Assembly: GCA_036375695.1 (NCBI GenBank)
Contig: DASVBU010000021.1
Span: forward strand, 27,329-91,328
Length of the DNA: 64,000 bases
Direction: 5' to 3'
From: Acidimicrobiia bacterium
GTDB taxonomy: Bacteria; Actinomycetota; Acidimicrobiia; Spongiisociales; ZC4RG35
Positions within the stretch are counted from its first letter, which is position 1, and each line of letters begins with the position of its first letter. The position numbers and the translations under genes are program-made. A model generated the notes under the pieces. That model had not been told where the DNA came from. It did not search any database and was given only the letters and a program-made list of their open reading frames with translations. This document shows, piece by piece, positions 5,726 to 40,381 of this stretch.

Positions 5726-6169
5726 GTGACCGTCGCCAGCCACCATCGCCAGGTCGAGAGCCGTCTCGCCGAGTCCCAGGTCCGCTATACGAAGGGGCGG
5801 CGGGCGGTGGTCGATCTCCTCGCCTCCGCCGAGGGGCCCCTGGGCGCGGCCGAGATCCACGAGCGGCTCGAGGGTCAGGTCCCGCTCTCGTCGGTGTATC
5901 GCACCCTCTCGGTCCTCGAGGAGGCCGGCGTGCTCATCCCCCACTTCGCCCAGAAGGGCCTCACCCGGTACGAGCTCGCCGAATGGCTTCGGGGGCACCA
6001 CCATCATCTCGTGTGCGTCGTCTGTGGCGGCGTCGAAGACTTCACCCTGCCCGAGAGGTTGGAGGCGGAGATGGACCGCATCGTGCGCGACATCGGCTCC
6101 CTCGCCCGCTTCCGGGCGGTCAACCACTCGCTGGAGATCGAGGGGAGGTGCACCCGGTGCGACGCCTGA
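5726..6169 (+). CDS. zur: Fur-family transcriptional regulator, zinc uptake regulator (Zur)-like
   Basis: 147 aa; winged-helix N-terminus; His-rich HHHH then CxxC...CxxC metal-site motifs; divergent from znuA and followed by znuC; GTG start. Confidence 0.75.
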   Translation: MTVASHHRQVESRLAESQVRYTKGRRAVVDLLASAEGPLGAAEIHERLEGQVPLSSVYRTLSVLEEAGVLIPHFAQKGLTRYELAEWLRGHHHHLVCVVCGGVEDFTLPERLEAEMDRIVRDIGSLARFRAVNHSLEIEGRCTRCDA

Positions 6170-9578: not shown

Positions 9579-10001
9579 GTGATCATCGACGATCCCTTGC
9601 GGAGCGCCCTGGAACGGGAGGGTCACCGGATGACCGCGCCGCGTCGCGCCGTGTGGCAGGTCGTCTCCACCGCGGAGCGCCATCTCACCGCAGACGAGAT
9701 CGCGGCCCGGGTTCGCTCCGAGTACCCGGACGTCAACCTGTCCTCGATCTATCGGTCGCTGACCCTCTTCGCCGATCTGGGCCTGGTCAGGGAGTCCAGC
9801 CTCGACAGCGGCGGGCCGGCGCATTGGGAGCCGGCGCACCCCGACGACGACTTCCACCTCCGCTGCCGGCGGTGCGGGAGGATCGACCACCACACCGGTG
9901 ACCTCGTCGACCGGGTGCGCAGCCACCTCGAGGGCGAGCACGGCTGGATCCCCGAGCAGGTGGAGCTGCTTGTGACCGGTCTCTGCCCGGACTGCGCCTG
10001 A
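9579..10001 (+). CDS. Fur-family transcriptional regulator, second paralog, Nur-like candidate
   Basis: 140 aa; HTH N-terminus; H..H..CRRC..........CPDC metal-site motifs; divergent from cbiMNQO. Nickel versus cobalt specificity not determinable from sequence. Confidence 0.7.
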   Translation: MIIDDPLRSALEREGHRMTAPRRAVWQVVSTAERHLTADEIAARVRSEYPDVNLSSIYRSLTLFADLGLVRESSLDSGGPAHWEPAHPDDDFHLRCRRCGRIDHHTGDLVDRVRSHLEGEHGWIPEQVELLVTGLCPDCA

Positions 10002-10003
10002 GC

Positions 10004-10138
10004 CCCCTACCCCCGGCCTCCGGCCGGCGGTACCTTCCCCCATGCTTCGCATGGGGGACTGATCCTTTCACCGGCCCCCGGGAACCATGGGCCGCCGTAC
10101 CTTCCCCCATGCTTCACATGGGGGACGCTGCAGCCCCG
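10004..10138. repeat. GC-rich hairpin repeat element, copies 2 (full) and 3 (core only), in tandem
   Basis: CCCCCTACCCCCGGCCTCCGGCCGGCGGTACCTTCCCCCATGCTTCGCATGGGGGACTGATCC then GCCGCCGTACCTTCCCCCATGCTTCACATGGGGGACGCTG; 9-bp perfect stem CCCCCATGC/GCATGGGGG; between convergent fur paralog and the acyl-CoA dehydrogenase. Confidence 0.7.
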
Positions 10139-10165
10139 CCCCGGCGACCTTGGCGTCGAGGTCCA

Positions 10166-11290
10166 TCAGAGCCCGAGGACGTCCCCCAGGCGCTGGCGAT
10201 GGAACCGGGGGTCGCCGAGGAGAAGCGACGACGTCTTGGCCCGCTTCAGGTAGAGGTGGGCGTCGTGCTCCCAGGTGAACCCGATCCCGCCGTGGAGTTG
10301 GATGTTCTCCCCGGCCGCCCACACGTAAGCCTCCGAGGCCACCGACGCGGCGAGGGGGGCGGCGATGGCAAACTCCTGCTCGTCGTCCGTGACCCGGACG
10401 GCGTGATACGCCACCGACTTGGCATGCTCCACCTTGACCAGCATCCGGGCACATCGGTGCTTGACCGCCTGGAACGACCCGATGGGCCGGCCGAACTGGT
10501 GGCGGGTCTTGGCGTACTCGGTCGACATCTCGAGACAGCGCTGGGCCCCACCGACCTGCTCGTTGGCGAGCAGCGACGACGCCATCGCGAGAGCCTTCTT
10601 CAACCCGTCGGCGGCCGGTCCGCCGCCGAGCGGTCGTCCCGCGGCCACACCCTCGAAGGCGACGTTGCCCTGGCGTCGGGTCGGGTCGAGGACGTCCACC
10701 TGCTCGACGCCGACCCCGGTCTCGCCGGCGCGGACCGGGAAGACGGCGACACCGTCGTCGGTGCGGGCCGCGACCAGGAACAGGTCGGCGAGATGACCGT
10801 CGAGGACGTGCTTCTTGACGCCCGAGATCATCCAACGGTCACCGTCCCGGGTGGCGGTGGTCTCGATCGCCTCGAGCCCCCAGTCGCGGGATCCCTCGAA
10901 GACGGCCAGCGTGGCGATGGTCTCGCCCGATGCGATGCCGGGGAGGAGCTCCGCCTTCTGCTCGTCGTCGGCGAGCGTCATGATCACGGGGGTGGCCAGC
11001 CCCACTGTGGCGAAGAAGGGGCCCGGGGTGACCATCCGGCCCATCTCCTCGAAGATCACCGACAGCTCCACGGGGCCGTAGCCGGCGCCGCCGTGCTCTT
11101 CGGGGATGGCGAGACCCGTCCAGCCGAGGTCTGCCATCTCCTTCCACAGCGAGCGATCGAACCCCTCGGGGGTCATCATCAGCTCCCGCACCGTCGGGAT
11201 CGGGAGCCGGTCGTCGAGGAACTCCCGCGCCGTGTTGCGGAGCAGCGTCACCTCCTCGGTCGGCGCATAGGAGACACGGGCCTCAGCCAC
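10166..11290 (-). CDS. acyl-CoA dehydrogenase family protein, probable non-catalytic partner subunit
   Basis: 374 aa ACAD fold (GGIGFTWEHDAHLY C-terminal helix); no recognisable C-terminal YEGT/IEGG catalytic-Glu motif; overlaps upstream ACAD gene by 8 nt. Confidence 0.75.
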   Translation of the reverse strand: MAEARVSYAPTEEVTLLRNTAREFLDDRLPIPTVRELMMTPEGFDRSLWKEMADLGWTGLAIPEEHGGAGYGPVELSVIFEEMGRMVTPGPFFATVGLATPVIMTLADDEQKAELLPGIASGETIATLAVFEGSRDWGLEAIETTATRDGDRWMISGVKKHVLDGHLADLFLVAARTDDGVAVFPVRAGETGVGVEQVDVLDPTRRQGNVAFEGVAAGRPLGGGPAADGLKKALAMASSLLANEQVGGAQRCLEMSTEYAKTRHQFGRPIGSFQAVKHRCARMLVKVEHAKSVAYHAVRVTDDEQEFAIAAPLAASVASEAYVWAAGENIQLHGGIGFTWEHDAHLYLKRAKTSSLLLGDPRFHRQRLGDVLGL

Positions 11291-12467
11291 GCGGCACCTC
11301 CCTCCACGGCACGTCCTTGTCCACCCTGGGGTCTCCGGGGAGGCCGAGGACCCGCTCCGCCAGGATGTTGAGCATCACCTCGGAGGTGCCACCCTCGATG
11401 GAATTGGCCCGGGTGCGAAGGAAGCCGTGCTGAGGCGGCCTGCCCTCGAAGACGGCCGGGCGGACGAGCTGATAGCCGCCCGGGTAGAGCGTCCCATCGA
11501 GGCCCATCAGCTCGAGGGTGAAGGACATCACCGCCTTGTTGTTGTCCGCCCAGGCCAGCTTGCCCGTGGACCCCTCGGGGCCCGGGATCCCGGCCTCCGC
11601 CATCTCGTCGGCGCGAATGGCGGTCAGACGTGCCGCCTCCACCTCGGCCCAGAGCCGGACGAGCTCGTCACGCATCACAGGGTCGCCGTCCCCGTACTCC
11701 TTCCAGGCGCCGATCGCCTCGGCGATCCGACCCGCGCCCCTCGGGACCGTGTTCCCGCCGATGGCCACCCGCTCGTTCATCAGGGTGGTGAGGGCGACAC
11801 GCCACCCGGCCCCGACGGCGTCGATCCGGTTGGCATCGGGAATCCTGGCGTCGTTGAAGAAGACCTCGTTGAACTCCGCCTCGCCGGTGATCTGATAGAG
11901 GGGGCGCACCTCGACACCGGGCGACTCCATGTCGACGACGAAGTAGGTCAGACCCTGGTGCTTGGGCACGTCGGGGTTCGTCCTGGCGACGAGCATCCCC
12001 CACTTGGCGAGGTGGGCCAGGGTGGTCCAAACCTTCTGCCCGTTGACCACCCACTCGTCGCCGTCACGGACGGCCATCGTGGCCAGGCCGGCCACATCGG
12101 AGCCGGCGCCGGGCTCGGAGAACATCTGGCACCAGATCTCCTCGGTGGTGAACATGGGACGCAGCCACCGCTGTTTCTGCTCGGAGGTGCCATGGGTGGT
12201 CAGCACACCGGCGCCCATGCCGATGCCGAGGACATTGCGGGCCCGGTTGTCGATGCTGGCACCCGCCTCGACGAGGCGGCGGTTGATGATCGTCTGATAG
12301 CGCCGCGGAAGCCCGAGCCCGCCCTCCCCTTCGGGATGCCATACCCAGGCGAGACCGAGGTCGTACTGGGCGCCCCAGAACTCCTTGTCGGGGGTCTCGG
12401 CCGGAGGGTGCCCCTCGAGGAGCTGCCGGATCAGGCCTTCGACCCGTTCCAGGTCATGGTCGCTCAT
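11283..12467 (-). CDS. acyl-CoA dehydrogenase (FadE-like)
   Basis: 394 aa; C-terminal SIEGGTSEVMLNI supplies the catalytic-base Glu; typical ACAD N-, middle and C-terminal domains. Confidence 0.85.
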   Translation of the reverse strand: MSDHDLERVEGLIRQLLEGHPPAETPDKEFWGAQYDLGLAWVWHPEGEGGLGLPRRYQTIINRRLVEAGASIDNRARNVLGIGMGAGVLTTHGTSEQKQRWLRPMFTTEEIWCQMFSEPGAGSDVAGLATMAVRDGDEWVVNGQKVWTTLAHLAKWGMLVARTNPDVPKHQGLTYFVVDMESPGVEVRPLYQITGEAEFNEVFFNDARIPDANRIDAVGAGWRVALTTLMNERVAIGGNTVPRGAGRIAEAIGAWKEYGDGDPVMRDELVRLWAEVEAARLTAIRADEMAEAGIPGPEGSTGKLAWADNNKAVMSFTLELMGLDGTLYPGGYQLVRPAVFEGRPPQHGFLRTRANSIEGGTSEVMLNILAERVLGLPGDPRVDKDVPWREVPRG

Positions 12468-12503
12468 ATGCCGCCAAGGTACAGCCGCCGGCCGAAGCTC
12501 GCG

Positions 12504-14132
12504 TCAGGGGATCGCCGGTTCGATGATGGCGTCGAGGTCGAGACCGGAAGGCAACGTGCCATAGAGGTGGCCCCAGTGGCCATCGAGACGGCTGGCGGCG
12601 AAGGCATCGAAGACCTCGGGCGAGGCGTGCTCGGCGAGCAGGACACCTGCCGCGGCCAGGGCCATCCGCTCCGTGATGATCCGCCCCGCGGCCTCGGCGT
12701 CGCTCATGTCGTAGCTCCCGAATGCGGCGTCCAGGGCCCGGTCGAGCCGCGGATCGTGCCCTCGCGCCTCTTCAAGTTCGTTCTGCAGCTCCTTGACCGC
12801 CGCCGGCTCGCGGGCCAGGACGCGGAGCACGTCGAGAGCGATCACGTTCCCACTCCCCTCCCAGATGGCGTTTACCGGGGACTCCCGATAGAGACGGGGC
12901 ATGATCGACTCCTCGACGTAGCCGTTCCCACCGAGACACTCCATTGCCTCCCGCACCACCTCGCTGCAGCGCTTGGTGACCCAGTACTTGGCCACGGGGG
13001 TGAGCAGCCGCTTGACCAGGTCCTCGTGGTCGTCGAGCGCCGCCCGGTCGAATGAGCCCGCCACCCGCATCATCAGGACCACGGCCGCCTCGGTCTCGAT
13101 CTCGAGATCGGCGAGGACGTTGCGCATCAGGGGCTTGGCGACCAGCTCGGCGCCGAACGCCGACCGGTGACGGGCGTGGTGGAAGGCCTGGGTGACGGCT
13201 TGCCGCATGAGGGCGGCGGAGCCGGTGATGCAGTCGAGACGGGTGTGGGCGACCATCTCGATGATCGACGCCACGCCCCGGCCCTCCTCCCCGACCAGAC
13301 GGCCCCAGGCGCCGTCGAACTCGACCTCCGACGAGGCGTTGGATCGGTTCCCCAGCTTGTCCTTGAGACGCTGGAGACGGATGGCGTTCACTTCGCCATC
13401 GGGGGTGAACCTGGGCACCAGGAAGCAAGAGAGCCCACCGGGCGCCTGGGCGAGGACGAGGAAGGCATCGCACATGGGCGCCGACATGAACCACTTGTGA
13501 CCCGTGAGGCTGAACTCGCCGTCGACTCCGGTCGGCGCCGCGGTCGTCGTGTTGGAGCGGACGTCGGAGCCGCCCTGCTTCTCGGTCATCCCCATCCCGA
13601 TGGTGACACCGGTCTTCTCCGCAGCCGGCCGGAAGGCCGGGTCGTACTTGCGGCTCACGATCCGGCGCTCCCACTCCTCGGCGACTTCCCGGGTGAGCCG
13701 GATGGTCGGGACGGCCCCACATGTCATGGAGATGGGGCAGAAGTGTCCCGCCTCGACCTGGGAGACGATGAAGGTCAGTGCGGCCCGCGCCGGGAACCCA
13801 CCCTCGCCCGGTTCCGTCTCCCACGGTATGGAGTGGAGACCGTTGGCGGTGGCCAGGTCCATGAGGTTGTGCCAGGCCGGATGGAACTCGACGGTGTCGG
13901 AGCGGCACCCGTAACGGTCGTGAGTGCGCAGACGGGGCGGGTTCTCGTTGGCGGCGAAGCCCCAGCCGTAGACCTCTTCGGTGGACATCTTCCGACCCAA
14001 CGCCTCCACCTGATCACGGGCCCACCCCGCACCCTCCCTTTCCAGGCCGGGCAGGAGAAGGGGGTCGGCGGCCGCCATGTCGTAGTCGACGAGGGGAGGC
14101 GTCTGATTGAAGACCTCGTGTGTGACGCCCAT
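12504..14132 (-). CDS. AidB-like / long acyl-CoA dehydrogenase
   Basis: 542 aa; ACAD core with IWEGSGNV catalytic motif and extra N- and C-terminal extensions as in AidB/ACAD10-11 type enzymes. Confidence 0.75.
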   Translation of the reverse strand: MGVTHEVFNQTPPLVDYDMAAADPLLLPGLEREGAGWARDQVEALGRKMSTEEVYGWGFAANENPPRLRTHDRYGCRSDTVEFHPAWHNLMDLATANGLHSIPWETEPGEGGFPARAALTFIVSQVEAGHFCPISMTCGAVPTIRLTREVAEEWERRIVSRKYDPAFRPAAEKTGVTIGMGMTEKQGGSDVRSNTTTAAPTGVDGEFSLTGHKWFMSAPMCDAFLVLAQAPGGLSCFLVPRFTPDGEVNAIRLQRLKDKLGNRSNASSEVEFDGAWGRLVGEEGRGVASIIEMVAHTRLDCITGSAALMRQAVTQAFHHARHRSAFGAELVAKPLMRNVLADLEIETEAAVVLMMRVAGSFDRAALDDHEDLVKRLLTPVAKYWVTKRCSEVVREAMECLGGNGYVEESIMPRLYRESPVNAIWEGSGNVIALDVLRVLAREPAAVKELQNELEEARGHDPRLDRALDAAFGSYDMSDAEAAGRIITERMALAAAGVLLAEHASPEVFDAFAASRLDGHWGHLYGTLPSGLDLDAIIEPAIP

Positions 14133-14209
14133 GGCGGAAGGCTAATCCCGGGGTGTAGGGCCCCGACCAGGGCCGTTGGGCCCTGGCGCGCCTGTGCCAT
14201 CCTTGCGAC

Positions 14210-14614
14210 ATGGCGGAACCCGCAGCCTTCGTCCACGAGTCCATGCCCCTGACGCGCACCCTGGGCATCACCACGGAAAAGCTCGACGCGTCCGAAGTCG
14301 TCCTGCGTCTCGAGTGGGCGCCAGAGCTGTGCACGGCCGGTGGCATCCTCCACGGTGGCGCCCTCATGGCTCTGGCGGACTCGGCCGGCGCCGTCTGCGC
14401 GTTCCTCAACCTCCCGGAGGGCGCCACGGCGACGAGCACGATCGAGTCGAAGACCAATTTCCTCGGGGCGGTGCGGGAAGGTTCCGTCACCGCCCGGGCG
14501 ACGGTGCTCCACGCCGGACGGACCACCATCGTGGTGGAGACGACGATCACCGGCCAGGACGAGCGGCTGGTGGCGAAGACCATCCAGACCCAGGCCGTGC
14601 TGGGCGGCTCCTGA
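14210..14614 (+). CDS. PaaI-family hotdog-fold thioesterase
   Basis: 134 aa; GGILHGGALMALADSAGA matches the PaaI/YbgC hotdog thioesterase active-site region. Confidence 0.8.
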   Translation: MAEPAAFVHESMPLTRTLGITTEKLDASEVVLRLEWAPELCTAGGILHGGALMALADSAGAVCAFLNLPEGATATSTIESKTNFLGAVREGSVTARATVLHAGRTTIVVETTITGQDERLVAKTIQTQAVLGGS

Positions 14615-14637
14615 GGTCTCCGGACTAAGTTCGCCTG

Positions 14638-15057
14638 ATGGAGCAGCGCATCAGCCTCGTCACCCTCGGCGTCCGTGACCTGAACAGGGCCAGGGCGTTC
14701 TACGAAGCGATGGGATGGCAGCCGGCACAGGACCTGGGCGAGGTCCTCTTCTATCAGACGGGCGGCATGGTCCTCGCCCTGTGGGGTCGGGCCGACCTTG
14801 CCGAGGACAGCCGGGTCGAAGACTCGGGTGGATGGGGCGGTGTGGCGCTGGCCTACAACGTGCGCTCGCCGGAGGACGTCGACGCCACGATCGAAGAGGC
14901 CCGCCAAGCCGGCGCCGTGATCAGCAAGGAGCCCGGCCCAACGGAGTGGGGCGGCTACCAGGGCGTGTTCATCGACCCGGAAGGGCATCCCTGGGAGGTC
15001 GCCCACAACCCCTTCTGGCCGATCGACGACGACGGCAGCATCAGGCTCGCGGGTTAG
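14638..15057 (+). CDS. VOC-family protein (glyoxalase / bleomycin-resistance fold)
   Basis: 139 aa; N-terminus ISLVTLGVRDLNRARAFYEAMGW typical of VOC proteins. Confidence 0.75.
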   Translation: MEQRISLVTLGVRDLNRARAFYEAMGWQPAQDLGEVLFYQTGGMVLALWGRADLAEDSRVEDSGGWGGVALAYNVRSPEDVDATIEEARQAGAVISKEPGPTEWGGYQGVFIDPEGHPWEVAHNPFWPIDDDGSIRLAG

Positions 15058-15992
15058 AGGTCGAGATCCCAGTTCTGGCCGACGAGGTCGTGCCCGAAGC
15101 TGTGGTGGCGATCCTCCTCGACCAGCGTGAACCCGGCCGACTCGTAGATCCGCCGCGCCGAGACCAGCACGTCGTTGGTCCACAGCATCATCTTCCGGTA
15201 GCCCGCGGAGCGGGCGAAGGCGATGCACTCCTCGACGAGGCGACTGCCGATCCCCCGCCCCCGCGCCCAAGGCTCGACCAGGAGGGTCCGGAGCTGGGCC
15301 GTGTCCGCATCCCGCTCCACGCAGAAGACGCAGCCGGCGCGGGCCCCGTCGATCTCGGCGATCCAGGCGTTCTCCCGACCGGGCCGGAAGTTGGCCTGGA
15401 AGTCGGCCATGATCCTCGCCACCAGGCCCTCGAACTCCTCGTTCCACCCGTACTCCTGGGCGTAGATGGCGCCATGGCGTGAGACGACCCAGCCCAGGTC
15501 GCCAGGTTCGAGACCCCGTACCACCACGTCGCCGCCGGCGTCCTCGGGACGAAGGAGGTGGAGTATCACCCCCATCGCCTCGACGAGCGCCCTCCGCTGA
15601 TCGTCGGTCAACGGCCCGACCAGGTCGGTGACCTGGTCCACGGACCTCTCGTCGAGGACGGCGAACGCGTCCCGACCCTCCGGGGTCAGCTCCAGGACCA
15701 GGGCGCGCCCGTCGTCCGGCGAGGGCGCCGACTCGACCAGGCCCTTCTCCTCGAGACGGGTCAGGACCCGGGTGAGGAAGCTGGCATCGATGCCGAGACG
15801 GGCGCGCAGGTCGGACCGCTCCCAACGCTCCCGCTGGGCGAGCTCGAAGAGCACCCGCGCCTCGGTGAGGGAGTGCTCGGTTTGGAGGAGACCCGAGTCG
15901 AGCAGGCCGATGATCTCGGTCCATGCCCGGCTGAAGCGTCGGAAGCGATCCACGACCGTCATGGCCGGAAAGTAGTGGACGGAGTCCACCAA
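15054..15992 (-). CDS. MarR-family HTH fused to GNAT N-acetyltransferase
   Basis: N-terminal MarR winged helix (ARVLFELAQ...LTRLEEKGLV); C-terminal GNAT motif A (RGRGIGSRLVEECIAFARSAGYRKMMLWT); alternative ATG start at 15960-15962. Confidence 0.7.
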   Translation of the reverse strand: MVDSVHYFPAMTVVDRFRRFSRAWTEIIGLLDSGLLQTEHSLTEARVLFELAQRERWERSDLRARLGIDASFLTRVLTRLEEKGLVESAPSPDDGRALVLELTPEGRDAFAVLDERSVDQVTDLVGPLTDDQRRALVEAMGVILHLLRPEDAGGDVVVRGLEPGDLGWVVSRHGAIYAQEYGWNEEFEGLVARIMADFQANFRPGRENAWIAEIDGARAGCVFCVERDADTAQLRTLLVEPWARGRGIGSRLVEECIAFARSAGYRKMMLWTNDVLVSARRIYESAGFTLVEEDRHHSFGHDLVGQNWDLDL

Positions 15993-24680: not shown

Positions 24681-26669
24681 TTACCGGGCGAAGCCGAGCA
24701 GGTGGAGCTCGGAGGGGAGAAGTGCCTGCGGCCCGTCCGACAGCGCCTCCTCGGGACGGGGATGGATCTCCACCATGAGGCCATGGGCGCCGGCTGCGAG
24801 ACCCGCCCGGCCCAGGGGGATGACCAGGGGTCGCACCCCGGCTGCGTGCGACGGATCCACGATCACCGGGAGATGGGTCAACTGCCGCAGCACCGGCACC
24901 GCGGCCACGTCGAGGGTGCTCCTGGTGGCGGTCTCGAAGGTGCGAATGCCTCGCTCGCACAGGATCACCTGGCGGTTGCCCTCGGCCAGTATGTACTCCG
25001 CCGCCTGGAGGAACTCCTCGATGGTGGCGCTCATACCCCGCTTGAGCAGAACAGGTTTGCGCACCTTGCCCACGGCCGACAGGAGGGCGAAGTTCTGCAT
25101 GTTGCGGGTCCCGATCTGGAGGACGTCGGCGACCTCCGCCATCGGCGCCACGTGCTCGGGCGCGAGGACCTCGGTGACGACGGGGAGCCCGTGGGCCCTT
25201 CCCGCCTCGGCGAGCAACTCCAGAGCCTCGAAGCCGAGCCCCTGGAAGCTGTAGGGCGAAGTCCTGGGCTTGAAACAGCCACCCCTCAGCACGCTTCCTC
25301 CCGCCTCCCGCGTCGCCCGGGCGCACTCCATGACCTGCGCCCGGTTCTCCACGGCACAGGGGCCGGCGATGAGGACCGGGTCGGCATCGCCGCCGATTCG
25401 GACGCCCGCCACCTCGACAACGGTGTCCCCCGTACCAGCCCGGCGCGCCAGCTTGGGGACGCCGACGTCGCGGATCGTCGTCGCCGGCGACTCCTCGGGC
25501 ACGACTCCGGTGGCCGGAGGCGCCAGGGGTCGCCGCCTGTGAGGCCGGAGGTCGGAGGACGGGTACGACCCGAGCACGCGCATGAACCGCGCCTTCCGTC
25601 CGACGCCCTCGAGCGCCCGGACCACTGCCTCGTCGGACACGTTGCCCTCGAAGTCGAGGATGAACGTCTCCTCCCAGGGGTCGTCGGGGTTGGGCCGTGA
25701 CTCCAGCTTGACCAGTGGGATGCCCTCACGGGCGAATTCCGCCAGGACCTCCATGAGGGAGCCGGGCTCGTTCCCCACCGAGAGGACGATCGTGGTCTTG
25801 ACGGGGACACCGGGTGTGACATCGATCCGCGCCCTGGAGACCGCCAGGAACCGGGTGAAGTTGTCCGGCCGGTCGGTGATCGACGGGTGCAGGACGTGGA
25901 GACCCCTGGACAACGCGGCCTCCTCCGCGGCCACGGCCGCCACGGACGGGTCGCCGAGCAGGCGGACCTCCTCGGCGGCGCCCGCCGTGTCCCAGCTGTA
26001 GACCACCTCGGCTCCGAGACCGCGCAGGAAGTCGGAGCACTGTGCAACGGCCTGCGGGTGTGCCAGGACGCGGGCGATGCCATCCAGGCTGGCGCCCGGG
26101 AGACCGATGAGCCGATGGGCCACCGGCAACCTGACCTCCCCGGTCACCGCCAGATCGTTGGCGATGAGCAGGTCGTAGACCTCGACGATGCTCCCCGACG
26201 TCGAGTTCTCCACCGGGAGGACCGCCGCGTCCGCCCGCCCCTTCCCCACCTCGGCGACGGCGTCGGCGAAGGTGGTGGTGCCCGCGAACTCGACCCCTTC
26301 GTCACCGAAGAGTCGCCGGGCGGCGACGTGACTGAAGGCACCCGGAGCCCCCTGGAAGGTCACTCGTCTCACCCTCCCGGCGAGTCGCCGCTCACCCACC
26401 AGGTCGAGCTGGACCCGGAGGGAGTCGTCGAGGATCTGCTCCCAGAGACGCACCACCACCCCTGCGTCGAGCCCGTATTCCCGCGCCACCGCCACCCGCT
26501 CGGCGAGGAGACGCTCCTCGCGCTCGGCGTCGTGGAAAGCAAGACCGTTTTGGACCTTCTCTGCGGCGATGTCGGTCACCAGACGGCGACGCTCGGCGAG
26601 CAGCTCGAGGATGCGACGGTCCACGTCGTCGATCCCGGCTCGGTGTGAATCCAATGGTGAAGGGGTCAT
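24681..26669 (-). CDS. tri-domain fusion: chorismate mutase + prephenate dehydratase (with ACT) + DAHP synthase type I-beta
   Basis: N-terminal CM_2 ([25 protein letters not shown]); PDT motifs ([11 protein letters not shown]...ENSTSGSI...); ACT ([32 protein letters not shown]); C-terminal DAHPS I-beta (IAGPCAVEN...[14 protein letters not shown]); GGGAG SD 7 nt upstream. Confidence 0.8.
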
Positions 26670-26870: not shown

Positions 26871-27890
26871 TTGACGGGAACGGCTCTCATCTCCGGAACC
26901 GGCCTGATCGGCACATCGATCGGGCTCGGGCTGCGCTCCGCGGGCTGGCAGGTCGTCGGCTGGGACCCAGATCCCGCCACTACCGCGGAGGCGCGGCGTC
27001 GCGGCGCGCTCGACCGGGTCACGGATCACCCGGAGGATCACTCGGGCATCGATCTCGTCGTCCTCGCCGGCCCTCTACCAGCGATCGTGGCCACGCTGAG
27101 GAGCCTGCGAAGCGGCGCTCTGATCACCGACGTCGCCGGTGTCAAGACCCCCGTCGTGGAGGCCGCCGCCAACCTCCCCCGGTTCGTCGGTGGTCATCCC
27201 ATGGCGGGCGGAGCCACCCGCGGCCCGGACCTCGCCTCTGCCCACCTCTTCCACGGAGCTGCCTGGGTGCTGACCACGGACGGAGCCTCGGAGGGTGACC
27301 TGGAGACCATCGAGGAGGTGGTCCGGACGCTGGGCGCAAACCCGCTGCGGATGACCGCCGACGAGCACGACTCGGCCGTCGCCCGGGTCAGCCATCTCCC
27401 CCATCTCCTCGCCGGGGCGCTGGTCAGGATCGCGGCGAGGCGGGAGGCGATGGGTCTGGCCGGAGGTGGCTTCCGCGACCTGACCCGCGTCGCCGCGTCC
27501 GACACGTCGTGGTGGCCGGACGTCCTCCAGGCAAACGCCACCGAGGTGGCTGACGCCATCTCGGAGCTGCAGGCGGACCTGGAGGGGGCCCGGGCACGGC
27601 TCCTCGCCGGCGACAAGGTCGCCATCACCGGGTCGCTCGAGGAGGCGCGGGCCATCCGATCCTCGCTCGGCGAGCACCATGCCCAGATCCGGGTCATCCT
27701 CATCGATCGTCCGGGAGAGTTGGCGCGGGTGGGACATGCCCTGGAGGCGAGCCACGCGGACGTGCGGGACATCCAGCTCCGTCATGGGGAGCACGGGGGT
27801 GGCGGCGTCCTCACCATCTCGGTCACGCCGCGGTCGGCCCGGGCACTGCGTGAGGCGCTGGAGGCCGAGGGCTTCACCCTCGAAGTCTGA
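26871..27890 (+). CDS. tyrA: prephenate/arogenate dehydrogenase (TyrA) with C-terminal ACT domain
   Basis: Rossmann N-terminus ISGTGLIGTSIGLGL; PDH catalytic region GGHPMAGG; TTG start per track; divergent from the leader/CM-PDT-DAHPS unit. Confidence 0.8.
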   Translation: MTGTALISGTGLIGTSIGLGLRSAGWQVVGWDPDPATTAEARRRGALDRVTDHPEDHSGIDLVVLAGPLPAIVATLRSLRSGALITDVAGVKTPVVEAAANLPRFVGGHPMAGGATRGPDLASAHLFHGAAWVLTTDGASEGDLETIEEVVRTLGANPLRMTADEHDSAVARVSHLPHLLAGALVRIAARREAMGLAGGGFRDLTRVAASDTSWWPDVLQANATEVADAISELQADLEGARARLLAGDKVAITGSLEEARAIRSSLGEHHAQIRVILIDRPGELARVGHALEASHADVRDIQLRHGEHGGGGVLTISVTPRSARALREALEAEGFTLEV

Positions 27891-28216: not shown

Positions 28217-28324
28217 GGCCATTTCGGCTTTTTGCTCCCTCCCAAACGCCCCATGGTTACACTCCCCCGAATCGGTGGCGGGTTCGCTCGCGCACCGAGC
28301 AATCAAATGGAGGAAAAGGAAGAC

Positions 28325-29710
28325 ATGAGTCGCAATTTCAGATCGCGACACCTGCTGATCCTGACGGTGGTCCTCGCCTTCATCGTTGCCGCATGTGGCA
28401 ATGGTGGCGAGGGGACGACGACCACCACCGGAGGTGGGGACACGACCACCACCGAAGGTGGGATGACGACCACCACGGAAGGCGGCGGGGGTCCCGAAGA
28501 CGACCCGCTCGGTGTCTGGGAGATCGCCCCTGGCGAGGCCATCCAGATCCGGGCGCTCCAGTCCCAGACCGGTGACGCCGGGCCCCTGGGCATCGACCAG
28601 ATCCGGGGCGTCCAGCTCGCCATCGCCGACTTCGGTCCGGTGGCCGGCGAGTGGGAAGTCGACCTCGGCACACCCGAGGACGACCTGTGCAACGCCGAAG
28701 GCGGCCAGGCCGGCGCCCAGGCCATCGTGGCCCAGGAGAACGTGATCGCCGTGATCGGCACCACCTGCTCCGGAGCCGCGTACGCCGCGGCCCCGGTCAT
28801 CACGGGTGCCAACATGGTGATGTTCTCGGGCTCGAACACGGCTCCGAACCTGACCTCTGACCTGCAGGGCAATGCGGGCGAGCAGCACTTCGAGGGCTAC
28901 TACCGCACGGCCCACAACGACCTGTTCCAGGGCGCCGCGGTGGCCAGCTTCGTGTTCAACGACCTGGGTCTGACCCGTGCGGTCGCCATCCATGACGGCG
29001 ACCCCTACACGGAGGGTCTCGTCGACGCCTTCATCGCGGCGTTCGAGACTCTCGGCGGCGAAGTCCCGCTGAAGACGGCCACGACCGGCCAGCAGGGCCA
29101 GGATCAGACGGCGCTCCTCTCCGAGGTCGCCGCTGCCGAGCCCGAGGTCGTGTTCTTCCCGATCTTCCCGCAGACGGGTGGCCCGGAGATCATCCAGCAG
29201 AAGGACGGCGTCGCCGGCCTCGAGGACGTGATCTGGATCGGTGCTGACGGCCTGTTCGTCAACAGCTTCATCACCATCCCGCAGTCCGTGGGCATGTACT
29301 TCTCCGGTCCGGACCTCGACTTCGGTGGCAACACCAGCGCCACTGGTAAGACCTACCAGGAGATGGTGGATGCCTATGTCGCCGAGTTCGGTGAGGAGCC
29401 CACTGCTCCGTTCCACGCCCACACCTACGACGCCACCGTGCTGGTGCTCACCGCCATCCAGGAGGTGGGTGTCGTCGGTGACGACGGCGTGCTGCGGATC
29501 GGCAAGCAGGCCCTGCGCGACTACCTGAACAACGTCTCGGACTTCGACGGTCTGATCGGCAAGATCACCTGCGACGAGTTCGGTGACTGCGGTAGCCAGC
29601 GGGTCCAGGTCGCCCACCACGACGACGCCGCCGTGGACAACATCGCCGACGTGGAGGTCGTCGCTCAGTACGCACGTGCTGACCTGATCGATCTCATCAC
29701 CGGCGGCTGA
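28325..29710 (+). CDS. ABC transporter substrate-binding lipoprotein, Leu/Ile/Val-binding (Peripla_BP_6) family, system 1
   Basis: Start re-set to ATG at 28325 (MSRNFRSRHLLILTVVLAFIVAACG lipobox, AGGAAAAGGAAG SD). Thr/Gly-rich tandem linker TTTTTGGGDTTTTEGGMTTTTEGGGG. LivK-like fold. Confidence 0.8.
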   Translation: MSRNFRSRHLLILTVVLAFIVAACGNGGEGTTTTTGGGDTTTTEGGMTTTTEGGGGPEDDPLGVWEIAPGEAIQIRALQSQTGDAGPLGIDQIRGVQLAIADFGPVAGEWEVDLGTPEDDLCNAEGGQAGAQAIVAQENVIAVIGTTCSGAAYAAAPVITGANMVMFSGSNTAPNLTSDLQGNAGEQHFEGYYRTAHNDLFQGAAVASFVFNDLGLTRAVAIHDGDPYTEGLVDAFIAAFETLGGEVPLKTATTGQQGQDQTALLSEVAAAEPEVVFFPIFPQTGGPEIIQQKDGVAGLEDVIWIGADGLFVNSFITIPQSVGMYFSGPDLDFGGNTSATGKTYQEMVDAYVAEFGEEPTAPFHAHTYDATVLVLTAIQEVGVVGDDGVLRIGKQALRDYLNNVSDFDGLIGKITCDEFGDCGSQRVQVAHHDDAAVDNIADVEVVAQYARADLIDLITGG

Positions 29711-29732
29711 TCCCGACGGATCCAACGATCTG

Positions 29733-29766
29733 AAAGGGGCCCGGCTCGAGCCGGGCCCCTTTCTCA
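29733..29766 (+). terminator. intrinsic terminator-like perfect hairpin after the SBP gene
   Basis: AAAGGGGCCCGGCTCGAGCCGGGCCCCTTTCT: 12-bp GC stem flanked by an A-tract and a T-tract. Confidence 0.6.
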
Positions 29767-29874
29767 CGCCCCGAAACCGGTTCACCCGTTGGGCGAATCC
29801 CTCGATCCGATACGACATGGGCGAAGTCAGTCCGCTATCGTGCCGCAACCTCCAAGGCGCGGACTGGAGTTCAC

Positions 29875-31164
29875 TTGGCTACCGAGAGCATCAGAGTGGA
29901 ACAAAGACGTGTGTCGGCGGACACACCGACCGTCGCCGTCGACGTCTTCATCAACGCCCTCAAGGTGTTCCTCGGCTTCTTCGCCCTCTGGGCCCTCGTG
30001 GGCGCCATCAGCCTCCAGATAGAGGGAAGACTCATCTCGGGCGCCGCCTGGCGGGACGTCCTCACCGGTGGGTTCGTCCAGGGCGCCATGTACGGCCTGG
30101 TCGCCCTGGGATACTCGATGGTCTACGGCATCCTCGGGTTCATCAACTTCGCGCATGGCGAGGTCTTCATGACCGGGATGTTCGGCGCCATGTTCGTGGC
30201 CCACGGGTTGGCCGACAACGGGATGCTGGAGTCGAACTTCTTCCTGGCCATGCTCATCATGATCGTCGCCGCCATGATCGTCTCGTCGGTGGTGGCGGTG
30301 GTGATCGAGAGAGTGGCCTATCGCCCGCTGCGGGGCGCTCCCCGCCTCATCCCCCTGATCACCTCGATCGGCGTCTCGTTCTTCCTCCAGTACGCCGTCA
30401 GCGGTCTCTTCGGCGCGGGTGTGAAGCGCTTCCCCGAGCTCCCTGCAGCCATGCAGCAGCGCTACAACATCCTCGGGCTCCTGGTCAACGGGAGCCAGAT
30501 CCTCGTCGTCGTGGTCACCGCCATCTCGGTGGTCGGCCTCTGGTGGTTCGTCACCCGCTCCAAGACCGGGCGCGCCATCAGGGCGGTAGCCGAGGACAAG
30601 GAGATCGCAGGGCTCATGGGCATCGACGTCGACCGGACCGTGGTCATGACCTTCCTCGTCGGCGGCGCGATGGCGGGTGTGGCTGCGGCGATGTGGGCAT
30701 TCCTCTACAAGAACGTCTTCTTCTTGTCCGGCTTCCTCCCCGGGATCAAGGCGTTCACCGCCGCAGTCCTGGGCGGCATCGGCAACCTGCCAGGCGCCCT
30801 GCTCGGAGGCATGACACTCGGTCTCGTCGAAGCCGCCGGGCCCACCTTCATGACCGCCTGGCGCTGGGCGATCCCCGACGTCGTCGCCTATGTGCTCGGG
30901 GTGATCTCGCTGGCGCTCGCCGTCTTCGGCGCCTACCGGCTCCGTCGGCGAGTCATCGTGCAGACCAGCACCAACATCTCCCTGATCGTCCTCGGTGTCC
31001 TGTTCGCGGTATTGGCCTTCACGGTCATCCCCGGGTTCCAGGTCGTGATCCCCGGCGCATCCCAGCTCAAGGACATGATCGCCTTCATAGTGCTGATCGG
31101 CGTCCTCATGATCCGCCCGATCGGGCTCCTGGGCGAGAGGCTCGCCGTGGAGGAGAGGGGCTGA
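29875..31164 (+). CDS. branched-chain amino-acid-type ABC permease, LivH-like, system 1
   Basis: LVALGYSMVYGILGFINFAHGEVFM matches the LivH N-terminal motif; start uncertain (N-terminal extension in track ORF). Confidence 0.7.
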   Translation: MATESIRVEQRRVSADTPTVAVDVFINALKVFLGFFALWALVGAISLQIEGRLISGAAWRDVLTGGFVQGAMYGLVALGYSMVYGILGFINFAHGEVFMTGMFGAMFVAHGLADNGMLESNFFLAMLIMIVAAMIVSSVVAVVIERVAYRPLRGAPRLIPLITSIGVSFFLQYAVSGLFGAGVKRFPELPAAMQQRYNILGLLVNGSQILVVVVTAISVVGLWWFVTRSKTGRAIRAVAEDKEIAGLMGIDVDRTVVMTFLVGGAMAGVAAAMWAFLYKNVFFLSGFLPGIKAFTAAVLGGIGNLPGALLGGMTLGLVEAAGPTFMTAWRWAIPDVVAYVLGVISLALAVFGAYRLRRRVIVQTSTNISLIVLGVLFAVLAFTVIPGFQVVIPGASQLKDMIAFIVLIGVLMIRPIGLLGERLAVEERG

Positions 31165-31165
31165 G

Positions 31166-33123
<1,958 letters not shown>

Positions 33124-33124
<1 letters not shown>

Positions 33125-33912
33125 TGGCGGAGCACATGATGGAGACCCGAGCGCTGGCGAAGCGGTTCGGCGGTCTCAACGCGCTCGCCGGTGTCGACTT
33201 CCACATCGACCGCGGGGAGATCGTGAGCATCATCGGGCCCAATGGCGCCGGGAAGACGACCTTCTTCAATGCCGTCAGCGGCATGTACCCGCCGGACTCC
33301 GGTGACGCCCTGTTCAAGGGCCAGAGCATCGCCGGGCTGAGCCCCGACCAGATCACCAAGATCGGCATCGCCCGGACGTTCCAGAACGTGCGGCTCTTCC
33401 CCAACATGACGGTGCTGGAGAACGTGATGGTCGCCCGTCACTGCCGCACCCACAAGAGCGTCCTGCCCACCATCTTCCGGAGCCCGGGGTTCCTCGCCGA
33501 GGAGAAGGAGATCGAGGACCGGGCCAAGGAGATCCTGTCGTTCTTCGGCAAGAGGCTCCACGGCTACCGCTGGGAGCAGCCCGCCTATGTGCTCTCCTAC
33601 GCCAACCGCCGTCGTCTCGAGATCGCCCGGGCCATGGCGACCGACCCCGAGCTGCTCCTGCTCGACGAGCCGACCGCAGGCATGAACCCCCGGGAGAGCA
33701 TGGAGCTGCGCGAGCTGATCGGCCGGCTCCGGGACGAGTGGGGCTTCACCATCATCATCATCGAGCACGACATGCGGGTGGTCCGTGACGTCTCCGACCG
33801 GGTGGTGGTGCTCGACCACGGAGAGAAGCTCACGGAGGGCACGTACGATCAGGTCTCGACCAACCCGCAGGTGATCGAGGCCTACCTGGGCCGACAGGCG
33901 GATCAGGGCTGA
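33124..33912 (+). CDS. ABC ATP-binding protein LivG-like, system 1
   Basis: Start at ATG at 33124 overlapping the LivM stop (TGATG); Walker [10 protein letters not shown]; LivG-type C-terminal extension. Confidence 0.85.
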
Positions 33913-34643
33913 TGACCGAAGATCGCACCCCCCTCCTCGAATTCAAGGACGTGAACACCTACTACGGGCTGGTTCACATCCTCAAGGACGTCAACCTCAA
34001 GATCTACCCGGGCGAGATCGTCTGTCTCCTCGGCGGCAACGCCTCGGGGAAGAGCACCACGCTGAAGACGATCCTGGGCATGGTCATCCCCGCCTCGGGA
34101 ACCGTGTACATCGACGGCATGGACGTGACCAAATGGTCGACCAGCCAGCGTGTCGAGCACGGGATCTCGATGGTCCCGGAGAACCGTCGCCTGTTCAAGC
34201 GGATGACGGTGAGGGAGAACCTCGAGATCGGCGCCTACCTGCGCAAGGACAGGGAGAACCTTCAGGCCGAGATGGAGCGGATCTTCGAGCTGTTCCCCAG
34301 GGTCAAGGAGCGGCTCAACCAGAAGGCCGGGACCCTCTCCGGTGGCGAGCAGCAGATGGTGGCCGTGGGCCGTGCCCTCATGTCCAACCCCAAGCTCCTC
34401 CTCATGGACGAGCCGTCGATGGGTCTGGCCCCGATCCTGGTCGCCCAGAGCTTCGAGATCATCCAGCAGATCCACGAGGCCGGGACCTCGGTGTTCGTGG
34501 TGGAGCAGAACGCCAACATGGCGCTCTCCATCGCCGACCGGGGCTATGTGCTCCAGACCGGCCAGATCGTGCTCTCCGACACGGCCCAGGCGCTTCTGGA
34601 GAACCCGCAGATGCGCCAGGCCTACCTCGGCGAAGTCTCCTAG
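33912..34643 (+). CDS. ABC ATP-binding protein LivF-like, system 1
   Basis: Walker A GGNASGKST, LSGGEQQMVAVGRAL signature; ATGA overlap with LivG. Confidence 0.85.
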   Translation: MTEDRTPLLEFKDVNTYYGLVHILKDVNLKIYPGEIVCLLGGNASGKSTTLKTILGMVIPASGTVYIDGMDVTKWSTSQRVEHGISMVPENRRLFKRMTVRENLEIGAYLRKDRENLQAEMERIFELFPRVKERLNQKAGTLSGGEQQMVAVGRALMSNPKLLLMDEPSMGLAPILVAQSFEIIQQIHEAGTSVFVVEQNANMALSIADRGYVLQTGQIVLSDTAQALLENPQMRQAYLGEVS

Positions 34644-34756
34644 ACCAGCCCTCCGGGCGCCGAGAAGTACCTGTCCGATTACCCCTTCGACTATCGGGCA
34701 CGCGTAAGGTCACGCCGCTACCCTCGCCACGCCCCGGCAGGGGCGCTGGAGGAGGA

Positions 34757-35526
<770 letters not shown>

Positions 35527-35539
<13 letters not shown>

Positions 35540-40311: not shown

Positions 40312-40381
40312 GCAGAGAGATAAAGTTGGCGGACGGTCGGATAGGACCGCGTCCGTCATGGACAACTAGGAGGAGAAGGAC

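Follow-up and report, generated by a model that had tools for sequence, protein, structure and literature searches.

Within the 64-kb stretch of Acidimicrobiia DNA analysed here (the window), two genes for proteins of the acyl-CoA dehydrogenase (ACAD) family, termed alpha and beta, lie in tandem on the minus strand (Table 1). An earlier note on this DNA described the genes as overlapping by 8 nt, and the list of open reading frames bears this out to the nucleotide. The overlap, preceded by a Shine-Dalgarno-like sequence, is consistent with translational coupling. Both reading frames have a third-position GC of 0.90–0.91, each product matches all three ACAD Pfam domains, and homologues number in the thousands for alpha and in the thousands for beta. 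Together with the recurrence of the gene order in other lineages, these properties indicate that alpha and beta are real genes.

Table 1. Features of the alpha-beta locus and adjoining genes, in window coordinates
Feature	Position	Strand	Remarks
beta gene	10166..11290	-	ORF, 374 aa, GTG start; contains HGGIGFTWEHDAHLYLKRAKTSSLLLGD
Codon of beta L358	10217..10219	-	MCAD-type base position; LLLGD aligned with IYEGT
beta HGGIGFTWEH	10265..10294	-	second canonical FAD-adenosine contact (alignment)
beta RHQFGRPIGSFQ	10469..10504	-	canonical motif contacting the ADP part of the partner's FAD
Codon of beta E244	10559..10561	-	helix G, seven residues past the base position; family-conserved
Codon of beta A237	10580..10582	-	helix-G base position; aligns with the IVD catalytic Glu
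alpha gene	11283..12467	-	ORF, 394 aa, ATG start; contains RANSIEGGTSEVML
8-nt overlap GTGGCTGA	11283..11290	-	alpha stop codon and beta GTG start
Shine-Dalgarno-like GGAGGGAGG	11297..11305	-	inside the alpha 3' end, 6 nt before the beta GTG
Codon of alpha E358 (SIEGGT)	11394..11396	-	one residue before the MCAD-type base position; Tcur3483 Gly363 column
alpha-type insertion PGGYQLVRPAVFEGRPPQH	11427..11483	-	ahead of I-x-G-G-T (MAFFT L-INS-i alignment)
Codon of alpha E232 (LMNERVAIG)	11772..11774	-	helix G; predicted base of the IVD/LCAD/ChsE4 type
alpha SEPGAGSD	12096..12119	-	canonical flavin/substrate loop of the middle domain (alignment)
AidB-like ACAD gene	12504..14132	-	542 aa; AidB_N and ACAD domains; 36 nt upstream of alpha
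Hotdog thioesterase gene	14210..14614	+	passes generic TIGR00369 only; divergent from the pair

The immediate neighbours do not lie where the earlier note had put them, as an AidB-like ACAD and a PaaI thioesterase downstream of the pair. The AidB-like gene, which scores 554 bits against NCBIfam PRK11561 (cut-off 545), shares the strand of alpha and lies upstream of it. The thioesterase gene is a divergent hotdog gene of the plus strand, and its candidacy as a PaaI equivalog was rejected at 40 bits against a cut-off of 118.9. The AidB-like gene is outside the conserved alpha-beta module and is possibly co-transcribed with the pair, in the window's lineage only. Among related loci, it lies 2 kb from the pair in L085, and none was found in the flanks read of L084, L086, L087/L088 and L089; the contig ends just upstream of alpha in L090/L091, and cut-off reading frames upstream of alpha in L001–L003 are probably the same AidB-like gene. 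Further neighbours are genes for metal transporters, Fur regulators, a MarR-GNAT fusion, an ABC-2 exporter, a TetR regulator and a globin, and orthologous loci have similar surroundings. In Acidimicrobiia the pair has the character of a self-contained module set among genes for metal uptake and other housekeeping functions, and the window's alpha-beta clade sits in housekeeping, non-steroid contexts in nearly all loci examined.

Complementary motif loss in alpha and beta

Pfam scores of the two proteins are reciprocal. In alpha the middle domain is the strongest (77 bits, versus 66 for the C-terminal and 38 for the N-terminal domain), whereas beta scores 96 bits for the C-terminal domain, 92 for the N-terminal domain and only 37 for the middle domain (cut-off 33). 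The same division is seen at the level of individual motifs, with SEPGAGSD, KVWTT and I.GGT.E found in alpha alone and RxQFGRPIGxFQ and HGGIGFT in beta alone. Where alpha has SEPGAGSD, beta has FEGSRDWG (10877–10900), and the alpha motifs KVWTT, NER and IEGGTSEV share their columns with KKHVLDG, MAS and LLLGDPRF of beta. In the other direction, RHQFGRPIGSFQ of beta aligns with YGDGDPV...MRDEL of alpha, a stretch that is likewise degenerate in ChsE4 and Tcur3483, and HGGIGFTWEH of beta aligns with MGLDGTLYPG. Across the five sites of complementary loss, the solved heteromeric enzymes sort in the same manner: ChsE4 and Tcur3483 side with alpha, and ChsE5 and Tcur3481 side with beta. Invariant residues of the beta family cluster in the ADP-contact motifs, comprising R263, Q265, F266, I270 and Q274 of the first and H333, G334 and G337 of the second in a 44-sequence family alignment; the flavin-contacting Thr column varies across the family and is occupied by L163 in beta. 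Because its own ADP-contact motifs are lost, alpha alone cannot complete a FAD site.

The closest solved structures agree with this division to differing degrees. The top PDB sequence matches of beta are Tcur3481 (154 bits, 34% identity), canonical 4l1f (133 bits) and ChsE5 (126 bits). Its AlphaFold model is of high quality (pLDDT 91.5), and the top three Foldseek matches are the Tcur3481 chains of 6wy8 and 6wy9, although this ranking discriminates weakly because all ACADs share one fold (TM-scores near 0.88). For alpha the model is poor (pLDDT 55), and PDB scores alone do not part heteromeric from homotetrameric enzymes, since Tcur3483 (117 bits), canonical homotetrameric 1ukw (116 bits) and ChsE4 (113 bits) lie close together. 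Alpha does carry an insertion, PGGYQLVRPAVFEGRPPQH, that aligns with PGAVLAGQ of Tcur3483 and PGALLRGR of ChsE4. This 9–13-residue insertion is common to ChsE4 and Tcur3483 and absent in canonical ACADs and beta chains; as a criterion for the alpha type it is drawn from the present alignment and is not a published definition.

These data bear on a further alternative, that alpha and beta work independently, each as a conventional homotetrameric ACAD with its own substrate, and are co-transcribed by chance. The presence of all three ACAD Pfam domains in both proteins and the near-equal scores of alpha on 1ukw and Tcur3483 fit such an arrangement. Neither protein, however, has the full set of FAD-site motifs, both known base positions of beta are without a candidate residue, and the motif loss is reciprocal and conserved across phyla; we consider chance co-transcription of two homotetramers very improbable. 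Assignment to the canonical MCAD/SCAD type was likewise rejected for each protein, as half of the FAD-site motifs are missing and the base column holds G359 in alpha and L358 in beta.

Candidate catalytic bases

Motif content predicts that alpha is the catalytic subunit, holding the flavin ring and the substrate. The earlier note had assigned the catalytic base to its SIEGGTSEV motif, an assignment that the alignments do not favor. HMMER and MAFFT, both without insertion or deletion near the site, place E358 in the column of the MCAD-type Tyr (Tyr375-equivalent) and G359 in the base column. Across 52 alpha-type partners position 358 is E, A, Y, G or S, with Glu confined to the window's clade bar one distant exception. 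The predicted base of alpha is instead E232 on helix G, which shares its column with E247 of ChsE4 (NHERVAL), the NHER Glu of Tcur3483 and the DYER Glu of isovaleryl-CoA dehydrogenase (IVD). The helix-G Glu is kept in 52/52 alpha-type partners and is invariant in a 41-sequence orthologue alignment (A3), and a motif scan found the helix-G ER motif in 119 of the 120 closest alpha homologues. The J-K loop has no Glu in either long-chain ACAD (LCAD), where it reads IYGGT, or IVD, where our alignment gives IGAGT. Both enzymes carry their catalytic Glu on helix G rather than in that loop (PMC11153573). IVD and LCAD differ from the window pair in being homotetramers with a full FAD site in each subunit.

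The same heteromer could still use E358, at or near the MCAD-type loop, as its base, with E232 in a structural or secondary role. Glu occupies the SIEGGT position in 120/120 of the closest alpha homologues by motif scan, E358 is invariant in the orthologue alignment, and the loop, which bears the base in most ACADs, adjoins the flavin-contacting GGT.E motif. Against this stand the one-residue offset in both alignments, the variability of position 358 in the 52 partners while the helix-G Glu is constant, IEGGT clade included, and the Gly that ChsE4 (TFGGGT, versus SIEGGT in alpha) and Tcur3483 carry at the E358 column. On balance E358 is unlikely to be the base, and E232 is the residue that we carry forward.

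Beta is predicted to lack catalytic function of its own and to complete the FAD site of its partner on the ADP-binding side. The statement that the downstream gene has no equivalent of YEGT or IEGG holds, given that LLLGD aligns with IYEGT, and at the MCAD-type position Glu and Asp are absent from all 138 family representatives (Leu or Phe in 131/138). The earlier note had named an intact base at a non-canonical position of the second protein, with helix G as its example, as the observation that would count against it. At the helix-G position beta has A237, and Glu or Asp occurs in 0/138 representatives, the residues present being A, G, S, V, T or L. A conserved Glu of this helix is E244, whose column holds Glu in 130/138 representatives and Asp in 5, but Phe in ChsE5 and Val in Tcur3481.

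Conservation, fusion proteins and unpaired beta genes

The alpha-then-beta order recurs in six other Acidimicrobiia lineages, and the flanking genes vary. As genes were called, junctions in these lineages are 8- or 17-nt overlaps or a 31-nt gap, with the same 8-nt overlap in L084, L085, L087/L088 and L089 and the 17-nt overlap in L086. Orthologues of alpha share 72–92% identity. Alpha is consistently more conserved than beta (84 versus 74%, 76 versus 65% and 76 versus 63% identity), a comparison in which equal lengths of the longest contig served as a proxy for both members of a hit pair lying on one contig.

Single-chain fusions occur in both orders, beta-alpha and alpha-beta, each half with one motif set, and some recur in independent assemblies. 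Beta-then-alpha fusions include P0292, P0270, P0281, P0350 and P0322. P0292, a single metagenomic sequence, is the fusion nearest to the window's clade and has NER and IEGGTSEV motifs as in the window's alpha. A fused enzyme has precedent in CasC of Rhodococcus jostii RHA1, a steroid ACAD in which FAD binding depends on the N-terminal ACAD domain and the catalytic Glu lies in the C-terminal one (PMC8399759). Compared by its published description, CasC has the beta-then-alpha layout of the five fusions just named; it acts on cholate side chains as one chain, whereas the window pair is made as two polypeptides.

Beta-like proteins are also widespread. More than 150 clusters (50% identity) score at least 280 bits to the window's beta, as against 154 bits for Tcur3481, and the wider beta-like family extends over Acidimicrobiia, Streptomyces, Pseudonocardia, Myxococcota, Rokubacteria, Methylomirabilota and Proteobacteria. 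In Acidimicrobiia, a large clade of beta-like genes shares these motifs and lacks any alpha gene within 10 kb; its conserved surroundings consist of an MBL-fold gene, suf genes and aceE. This orphan clade implies that a beta-type protein need not have a partner gene beside it and may serve some other purpose. Pairing in trans is still open to orphan genes, given that IpdE1 and IpdE2 of M. tuberculosis come from separate loci.

The orphan clade, with its conserved genomic context, and the conservation of E244 could be read as signs that beta is not an obligate partner, having its own non-dehydrogenase or regulatory role or using E244 as a base, so that the gene overlap reflects co-regulation. 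We judge this improbable. Beta is missing the flavin-ring contacts (L163 at the Thr column and a degenerate SEP..GSD loop), and E244 is seven residues, or some two turns of the helix, away from the base position. From the side of alpha, the loss of its own ADP-contact motifs creates a need for a partner to form the FAD site, and the fusion proteins argue for physical association.

Substrate class

The earlier note had proposed a steroid or other bulky acyl-CoA substrate, and this part of its proposal is not supported. The annotated genes of the window, which cover most of the 64 kb, include none for steroid catabolism or beta-oxidation, nor are there any beside the six orthologous pairs, and the flanking genes are not conserved. 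Alpha also has Glu358 where Tcur3483 has Gly363, which we take to be the 'key glycine' of steroid alpha subunits. The 6wy8 and 6wy9 chains themselves differ at this column (GGG versus AGG), 6wy9 being labelled a 'G363A variant'.

A role for the pair as an ACAD of steroid or bile-acid side chains or rings, in the manner of ChsE4-ChsE5, Tcur3481-Tcur3483 or IpdE1-IpdE2, nonetheless has several observations in its favor. The nearest solved structures are steroid ACADs, the top NCBIfam match of beta is IpdE2 (NF050027), and a distant Kribbella locus (L069) adjoins a MaoC-like hotdog pair, short-chain dehydrogenases and a thiolase. The IpdE2 match is partial and reaches 218 bits versus a cut-off of 450, on which ground IpdE2 identity was rejected for beta. 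Together with the absence of pathway genes at the loci named above and the exchange of the 'key glycine' for Glu358, the more than 150 beta-like clusters that are nearer to beta than any solved steroid beta chain make a steroid substrate improbable as well.

A non-steroid comparison is offered by PimC-PimD of Rhodopseudomonas palustris, a pimeloyl-CoA dehydrogenase with large and small subunits encoded by adjacent genes, and by related ACAD pairs for dicarboxylates. PimC-PimD may likewise be a heterotetramer (PMC12543098). The top NCBIfam match of alpha is pimC_large and the second-best of beta is pimD_small. Scores are far below the equivalog cut-offs (alpha 172 versus 624 bits for TIGR03204; beta 188 versus 653 bits for TIGR03203), and the pair is therefore not a PimC-PimD orthologue.

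Discussion

Alpha and beta probably form an obligate heteromeric ACAD, to judge from the solved relatives most likely an alpha2beta2 tetramer with two FAD. In the proposed enzyme, alpha would form the pocket for the acyl-CoA, hold the flavin ring and contribute Glu232 as catalytic base. Beta, in which both base positions and the flavin-ring contacts are lost, would retain two motifs that clamp the ADP-ribose. As these two motifs are exactly the ones that alpha has lost, a complete FAD site is expected only in the alpha-beta dimer, with one active site per dimer. The overlap of 8 nt, together with the ribosome-binding site inside alpha, would couple translation and favor equal amounts of the subunits. 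How many subunits and FAD the enzyme holds, which residue is the base and that the enzyme is active are what we infer from these sequence comparisons. The earlier note had likewise proposed an alpha2beta2 heteromer with one catalytic subunit. That core agreed with every sequence-level test made here, through motif loss, the closeness of beta in sequence and fold to its counterparts in 6WY8 and 4X28, the alpha insertion, gene order and fusions; the SIEGGT base and the steroid substrate were not supported.

The pair is most likely a member of a known two-subunit ACAD design, that of ChsE4-ChsE5, ChsE1-ChsE2 and Tcur3481-Tcur3483, from a branch without prior study. Alpha2beta2 ACADs were discovered in the M. 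tuberculosis cholesterol pathway and have mostly been discussed as steroid enzymes. In ChsE4-ChsE5 (FadE26-FadE27; 4X28), an alpha2beta2 enzyme, alpha binds the isoalloxazine and holds the catalytic Glu, and beta binds the ADP-ribose (PMC11153573). The window pair shares its motif pattern, the helix-G Glu (E247, equivalent to E232 of alpha) and similar subunit sizes (400/373 aa versus 394/374 aa). Matches to ChsE4 and ChsE5 reach only 113 and 126 bits, and ChsE4-ChsE5 is part of the cholesterol regulon, with a C8 sterol side chain as its substrate, a context that the window pair does not have. The other close model, Tcur3481-Tcur3483 of Thermomonospora curvata (6WY8, 6WY9), also consists of two ACAD-fold chains with the five-site motif pattern, and Tcur3483 resembles alpha in its NHER Glu and its alpha-type insertion. 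Identity to the window pair is only about 30–34%, the residues at the alpha E358 and beta E244 columns differ (Gly363 and Val, respectively), and the Thermomonospora enzyme comes from a steroid-degradation setting, outside of which the window pair lies.

A more speculative interpretation, which we hold to be doubtful, is that the IEGGT clade comprises distinct heteromeric ACADs with two active-site carboxylates, E232 and Glu358, and that the orphan beta proteins are exchangeable or free-standing partners. Glu358 would then be flavin-adjacent, at a position that is Gly in the two aligned steroid enzymes and Tyr in the aligned canonical ACADs, and the chemistry could extend to 1,4-dehydrogenation, isomerisation or charged substrates. 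If this were true, orphan beta-like proteins with an invariant E244 would imply a modular beta-subunit system without earlier description.

For the preferred reading, an obligate heteromer with E232 as base, the implications are chiefly for the family. The locus belongs to a large uncharacterised branch of beta-like proteins, and confirmation would yield simple annotation rules: a helix-G ER motif with SEP..GSD for alpha, and RxQFGRPIGxFQ with HGGxGFTWE, with no Glu at either base position, for beta. The practical gain would be modest. If confirmed, the split-FAD-site design would be a general solution among ACADs rather than a steroid speciality.

An overlapping pair of acyl-CoA dehydrogenase genes

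Two acyl-CoA dehydrogenase (ACAD) genes, alpha and beta, lie on the minus strand exactly where the earlier note had placed them and overlap by 8 nt (GTGGCTGA), with the run GGAGGGAGG positioned 6 nt ahead of the beta start. Third-position GC is 0.90-0.91 in both ORFs, all three ACAD Pfam domains are found in each product, and homologues of each number in the thousands. NCBI has a protein identical to alpha (P0121), encoded on a 103-kb contig of a metagenome-assembled Acidimicrobiia genome. The peptides quoted previously were verified in the two products, SIEGGTSEV for alpha and GGIGFTWEHDAHLYLKR for beta. When 9900-14700 was scanned for promoters and terminators, matches were no more numerous than expected by chance.

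Coordinates of features in the window and in compared loci
Feature	Sequence	Position	Strand	Remarks
Alpha	window	11283..12467	-	394 aa, ATG start
Beta	window	10166..11290	-	374 aa, GTG start
Beta E244 codon	window	10559-10561
AidB-like gene	window	12504..14132	-	36 nt upstream of alpha
Hotdog thioesterase	window	14210..14614	+	divergent from the pair
MarR-GNAT fusion	window	15054-15992	-	312 aa
Fur regulator	window	5726-6169	+
Fur regulator	window	9579-10001	+
CM_2-PDT-DAHP_synth_1 gene	window	24681-26669	-	662 aa, single chain
Prephenate dehydrogenase	window	26871-27890
Liv-type ABC cluster	window	28232-41791	+	16 kb from the ACAD pair
AMP-binding acyl-CoA ligase	window	36375-38225		inside Liv-type cluster
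Orphan beta-like gene	L018	10001-11116
Orphan beta-like gene	L006	9968-11119
Kribbella alpha, beta and flanks	L069	6002-13572
Orthologous locus with split beta	L085	5235-11310

Matches to solved structures

Among PDB sequences, beta matched best to Tcur3481 (154 bits), which is the non-catalytic partner in a heterotetramer of known structure, Tcur3481-Tcur3483. Next came a canonical ACAD (133 bits) and ChsE5 (126 bits), the beta-type chain of ChsE4-ChsE5. The best scores of alpha, 117 bits to Tcur3483, 116 to homotetrameric 1ukw and 113 to ChsE4, are so close for the first two that score alone leaves alpha unclassified. Tcur3481 chains were the top three Foldseek matches of the AlphaFold beta model (pLDDT 91.5), a ranking that tells ACAD subtypes apart poorly because all ACADs align at TM ~0.88. 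Low-confidence stretches of this model are the two FAD-ADP contact loops (residues ~261-275 and ~336-340). The AlphaFold2 alpha model (pLDDT 55.3) was too poor to use, although its alignment depth was similar to that of beta. Pfam scores for the middle domain were 77 bits in alpha versus 37 in beta, for the N-terminal domain 38 versus 92, and for the C-terminal domain 66 versus 96, a pattern that mirrors the reciprocity of motif sites between the two proteins.

Reciprocal motifs at the FAD site

We used MAFFT to align alpha, beta and the AidB-like neighbour with eight PDB chains, whose matched segments were rebuilt from HMMER output. Five sites are reciprocal between alpha and beta. The alpha-type chains ChsE4 and Tcur3483 agree with alpha at all five, and ChsE5 and Tcur3481 agree with beta, whereas canonical ACADs have an intact motif at each site except the helix-G base column. 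An insertion ahead of the I-x-G-G motif is common to alpha, ChsE4 and Tcur3483. In described heteromeric ACADs, the alpha subunit provides isoalloxazine binding, the Glu and the substrate site while beta touches the ADP-ribose (PMC11153573), and each alpha-beta dimer has one Glu and one FAD (PMC8399759). Judged by motifs, the predicted roles of the window's alpha and beta match this division of labour.

Sites reciprocal between alpha and beta
Site	Alpha	Beta
Middle-domain flavin/substrate loop	SEPGAGSD	FEGSRDWG
Flavin-contact strand	KVWTT	KKHVLDG
Helix-G base column	LMNE232R	LAMA237S
Partner-FAD ADP contact 1	YGDGDPV...MRDEL	RHQFGRPIGSFQ
Partner-FAD ADP contact 2	MGLDGTL	HGGIGFT

Catalytic base positions

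The SIEGGT Glu of alpha had been read as the equivalent of the YEGT Glu. This equivalence fails: HMMER and MAFFT, both anchored on the conserved G-T-x-E, place E358 at the Tyr column and G359 at the MCAD base column. At the E358 column lies the sole residue by which the chain of 6wy8 (GGG) differs from that of 6wy9 (AGG), and 6wy9 carries the label 'G363A variant'. Alpha E232, by comparison, aligns with ChsE4 E247 and the helix-G Glu of IVD. The helix-G ER Glu is unchanged in 52/52 ORFs for alpha-type partners found across 80 genomes, whereas position 358 in the same set is Glu only in the clade nearest the window, which includes Nitriliruptor, Kribbella, Pseudonocardia, Myxococcota, Rokubacteria and Methylomirabilota, plus one distant exception. 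Outside that clade the residue is A, Y, G or S, with TFGGG in the most distant ChsE4-like sequences. Based on alignment columns and on the invariance of the helix-G Glu against the variability of position 358, E232 is assigned as the predicted catalytic base, and we treat E358 as a putative clade-specific active-site feature.

Consistent with the proposal that the downstream protein is without a catalytic Glu, the IVD column is occupied in beta by A237 and the MCAD column by L358. A base at an alternative position in beta, for example in helix G, had been named beforehand as evidence against this proposal; it was looked for and not found, the helix-G position being A237. Glu or Asp occurs at either base column in 0/138 representatives of the beta-like family, drawn from 50%-identity clusters. 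A caveat is beta E244, also in helix G and seven residues past the base position: it is Glu in 130 of these 138 representatives, whereas the column is Phe in ChsE5 and Val in Tcur3481. We rejected E244 as a replacement base because it lies too far along the helix and because beta is also without the flavin-ring contacts.

Gene order, conservation and fusions

Six other Acidimicrobiia lineages have orthologous pairs in which alpha is again followed by beta, with a junction of 8- or 17-nt overlap, or a 31-nt gap as genes are called, and with a different gene upstream of alpha in each lineage. At one orthologous locus (L085), the beta call is broken into two ORFs (85 and 297 aa), reflecting a frameshift or a sequencing error. 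In a search of GTDB contigs, the best beta match among those listed was 53% identical; close orthologues were obtained by another search. Conservation of alpha exceeds that of beta by ~10 points in match pairs presumed to share a contig (equal lengths of the longest contig serving as proxy), and identity averaged over columns is 81% in alpha against 72% in beta.

Single-chain beta-alpha fusions of 727-805 aa occur in both orders with one motif set on each half (P0292, P0270, P0281 with P0390 and P0391, P0350, P0322, P0294, and P0341 with P0392). Fusions P0281 and P0341 were found again in independent assemblies; P0292, a single sequence, shares the NER and IEGGTSEV motifs of the window's alpha. 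Published precedent exists in CasC, a fused steroid ACAD (PMC8399759). Collectively, gene order, conservation and fusions lend independent support to a predicted physical pairing of alpha and beta.

Neighbouring genes and substrate

An AidB-like ACAD and a PaaI thioesterase were earlier described as lying downstream of the pair. The AidB-like gene is in fact upstream, and the thioesterase is divergently transcribed, as is a glyoxalase-fold gene; the thioesterase passes the generic TIGR00369 model only, not the PaaI equivalog. We considered the AidB-like gene as a conserved third component and rejected it, since it adjoins the pair only in the window's own lineage. At L085, a DUF222 gene separates the AidB-like gene from alpha. 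No further ACAD genes were found in the window.

Other neighbours of the pair are ZnuA/ABC-3 and CbiMNQO transporters, two Fur regulators, a MarR-GNAT fusion, an ABC-2 exporter, a TetR regulator and a globin. The Fur regulators bracket the metal-uptake genes (ZnuA/ABC-3, CbiM-PDGLE/CbiQ/CbiO), a cluster that accompanies the ACAD pair in all orthologous Acidimicrobiia loci with enough flanking DNA read. The MarR-GNAT gene, adjoining the thioesterase and glyoxalase genes, encodes a MarR-family HTH fused to a GNAT acetyltransferase domain.

A steroid substrate, raised in the earlier note, is unsupported: no steroid or beta-oxidation partner genes were found near the pair, the remainder of the window adds nothing relevant, flanks are not conserved, and the NCBIfam equivalogs PimC, PimD and IpdE2 were all missed by wide margins. 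Assigning a substrate by gene neighbourhood failed, as the flanks of pairs in the IEGGT clade (those nearest the window's, with a SIEGGT-type alpha motif) differ in every lineage, comprising an AMP-binding ligase, MBL-fold gene, ABC-2 exporter, polyketide cyclase with 2OG oxygenase, MFS transporter, esterase, or HAD with flavin reductase. The only beta-oxidation set found at an IEGGT-clade locus is in Kribbella; there, IEGGT-type alpha and beta are split by an opposite-strand SDR gene, and the flanking genes are a MaoC-like hotdog pair, a further SDR and a thiolase. The heteromeric family already has known or proposed members outside steroid metabolism, including FadE23-FadE24 and the PimCD-like dicarboxylate ACADs (PMC12543098).

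Elsewhere in the window, one gene encodes chorismate mutase (CM_2), prephenate dehydratase (PDT) and DAHP synthase (DAHP_synth_1) domains and adjoins a prephenate dehydrogenase gene. The Liv-type cluster encodes two ATPases and two Peripla_BP_6 binding proteins, together with two BPD_transp_2 permeases, one of which is 652 aa long and carries a DUF3185 insert.

Orphan beta-like genes and the heteromeric reading

A GTDB scan revealed, besides the wider beta-like family, a large Acidimicrobiia clade of beta-like genes (L004-L045) that share ~50% identity with the beta of the window. These genes have all beta-type motifs and Glu at neither base position, and no alpha-type gene was found within 10 kb of them. 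They sit in a conserved neighbourhood made up of a divergent MBL-fold gene, a 150-aa gene, an alpha/beta hydrolase, sufS/sufU/sufC and aceE. A 157-aa gene following beta at the orthologous locus L087 was compared with this 150-aa gene, and equivalence was rejected for want of homology. The window's beta groups with its orthologues in a clade distinct from this one and sister to a Nitriliruptor pair. The orphan proteins may find a partner in trans or act in a role of their own, and their existence is the main reason that our confidence in a heteromer stops short of certainty. Nonetheless, the proposal that alpha and beta form a heteromeric ACAD is well supported at the sequence level by reciprocal motifs, conserved gene order and fusions, and is probably correct. 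The pair is an uncharacterised new member of an already known enzyme architecture.
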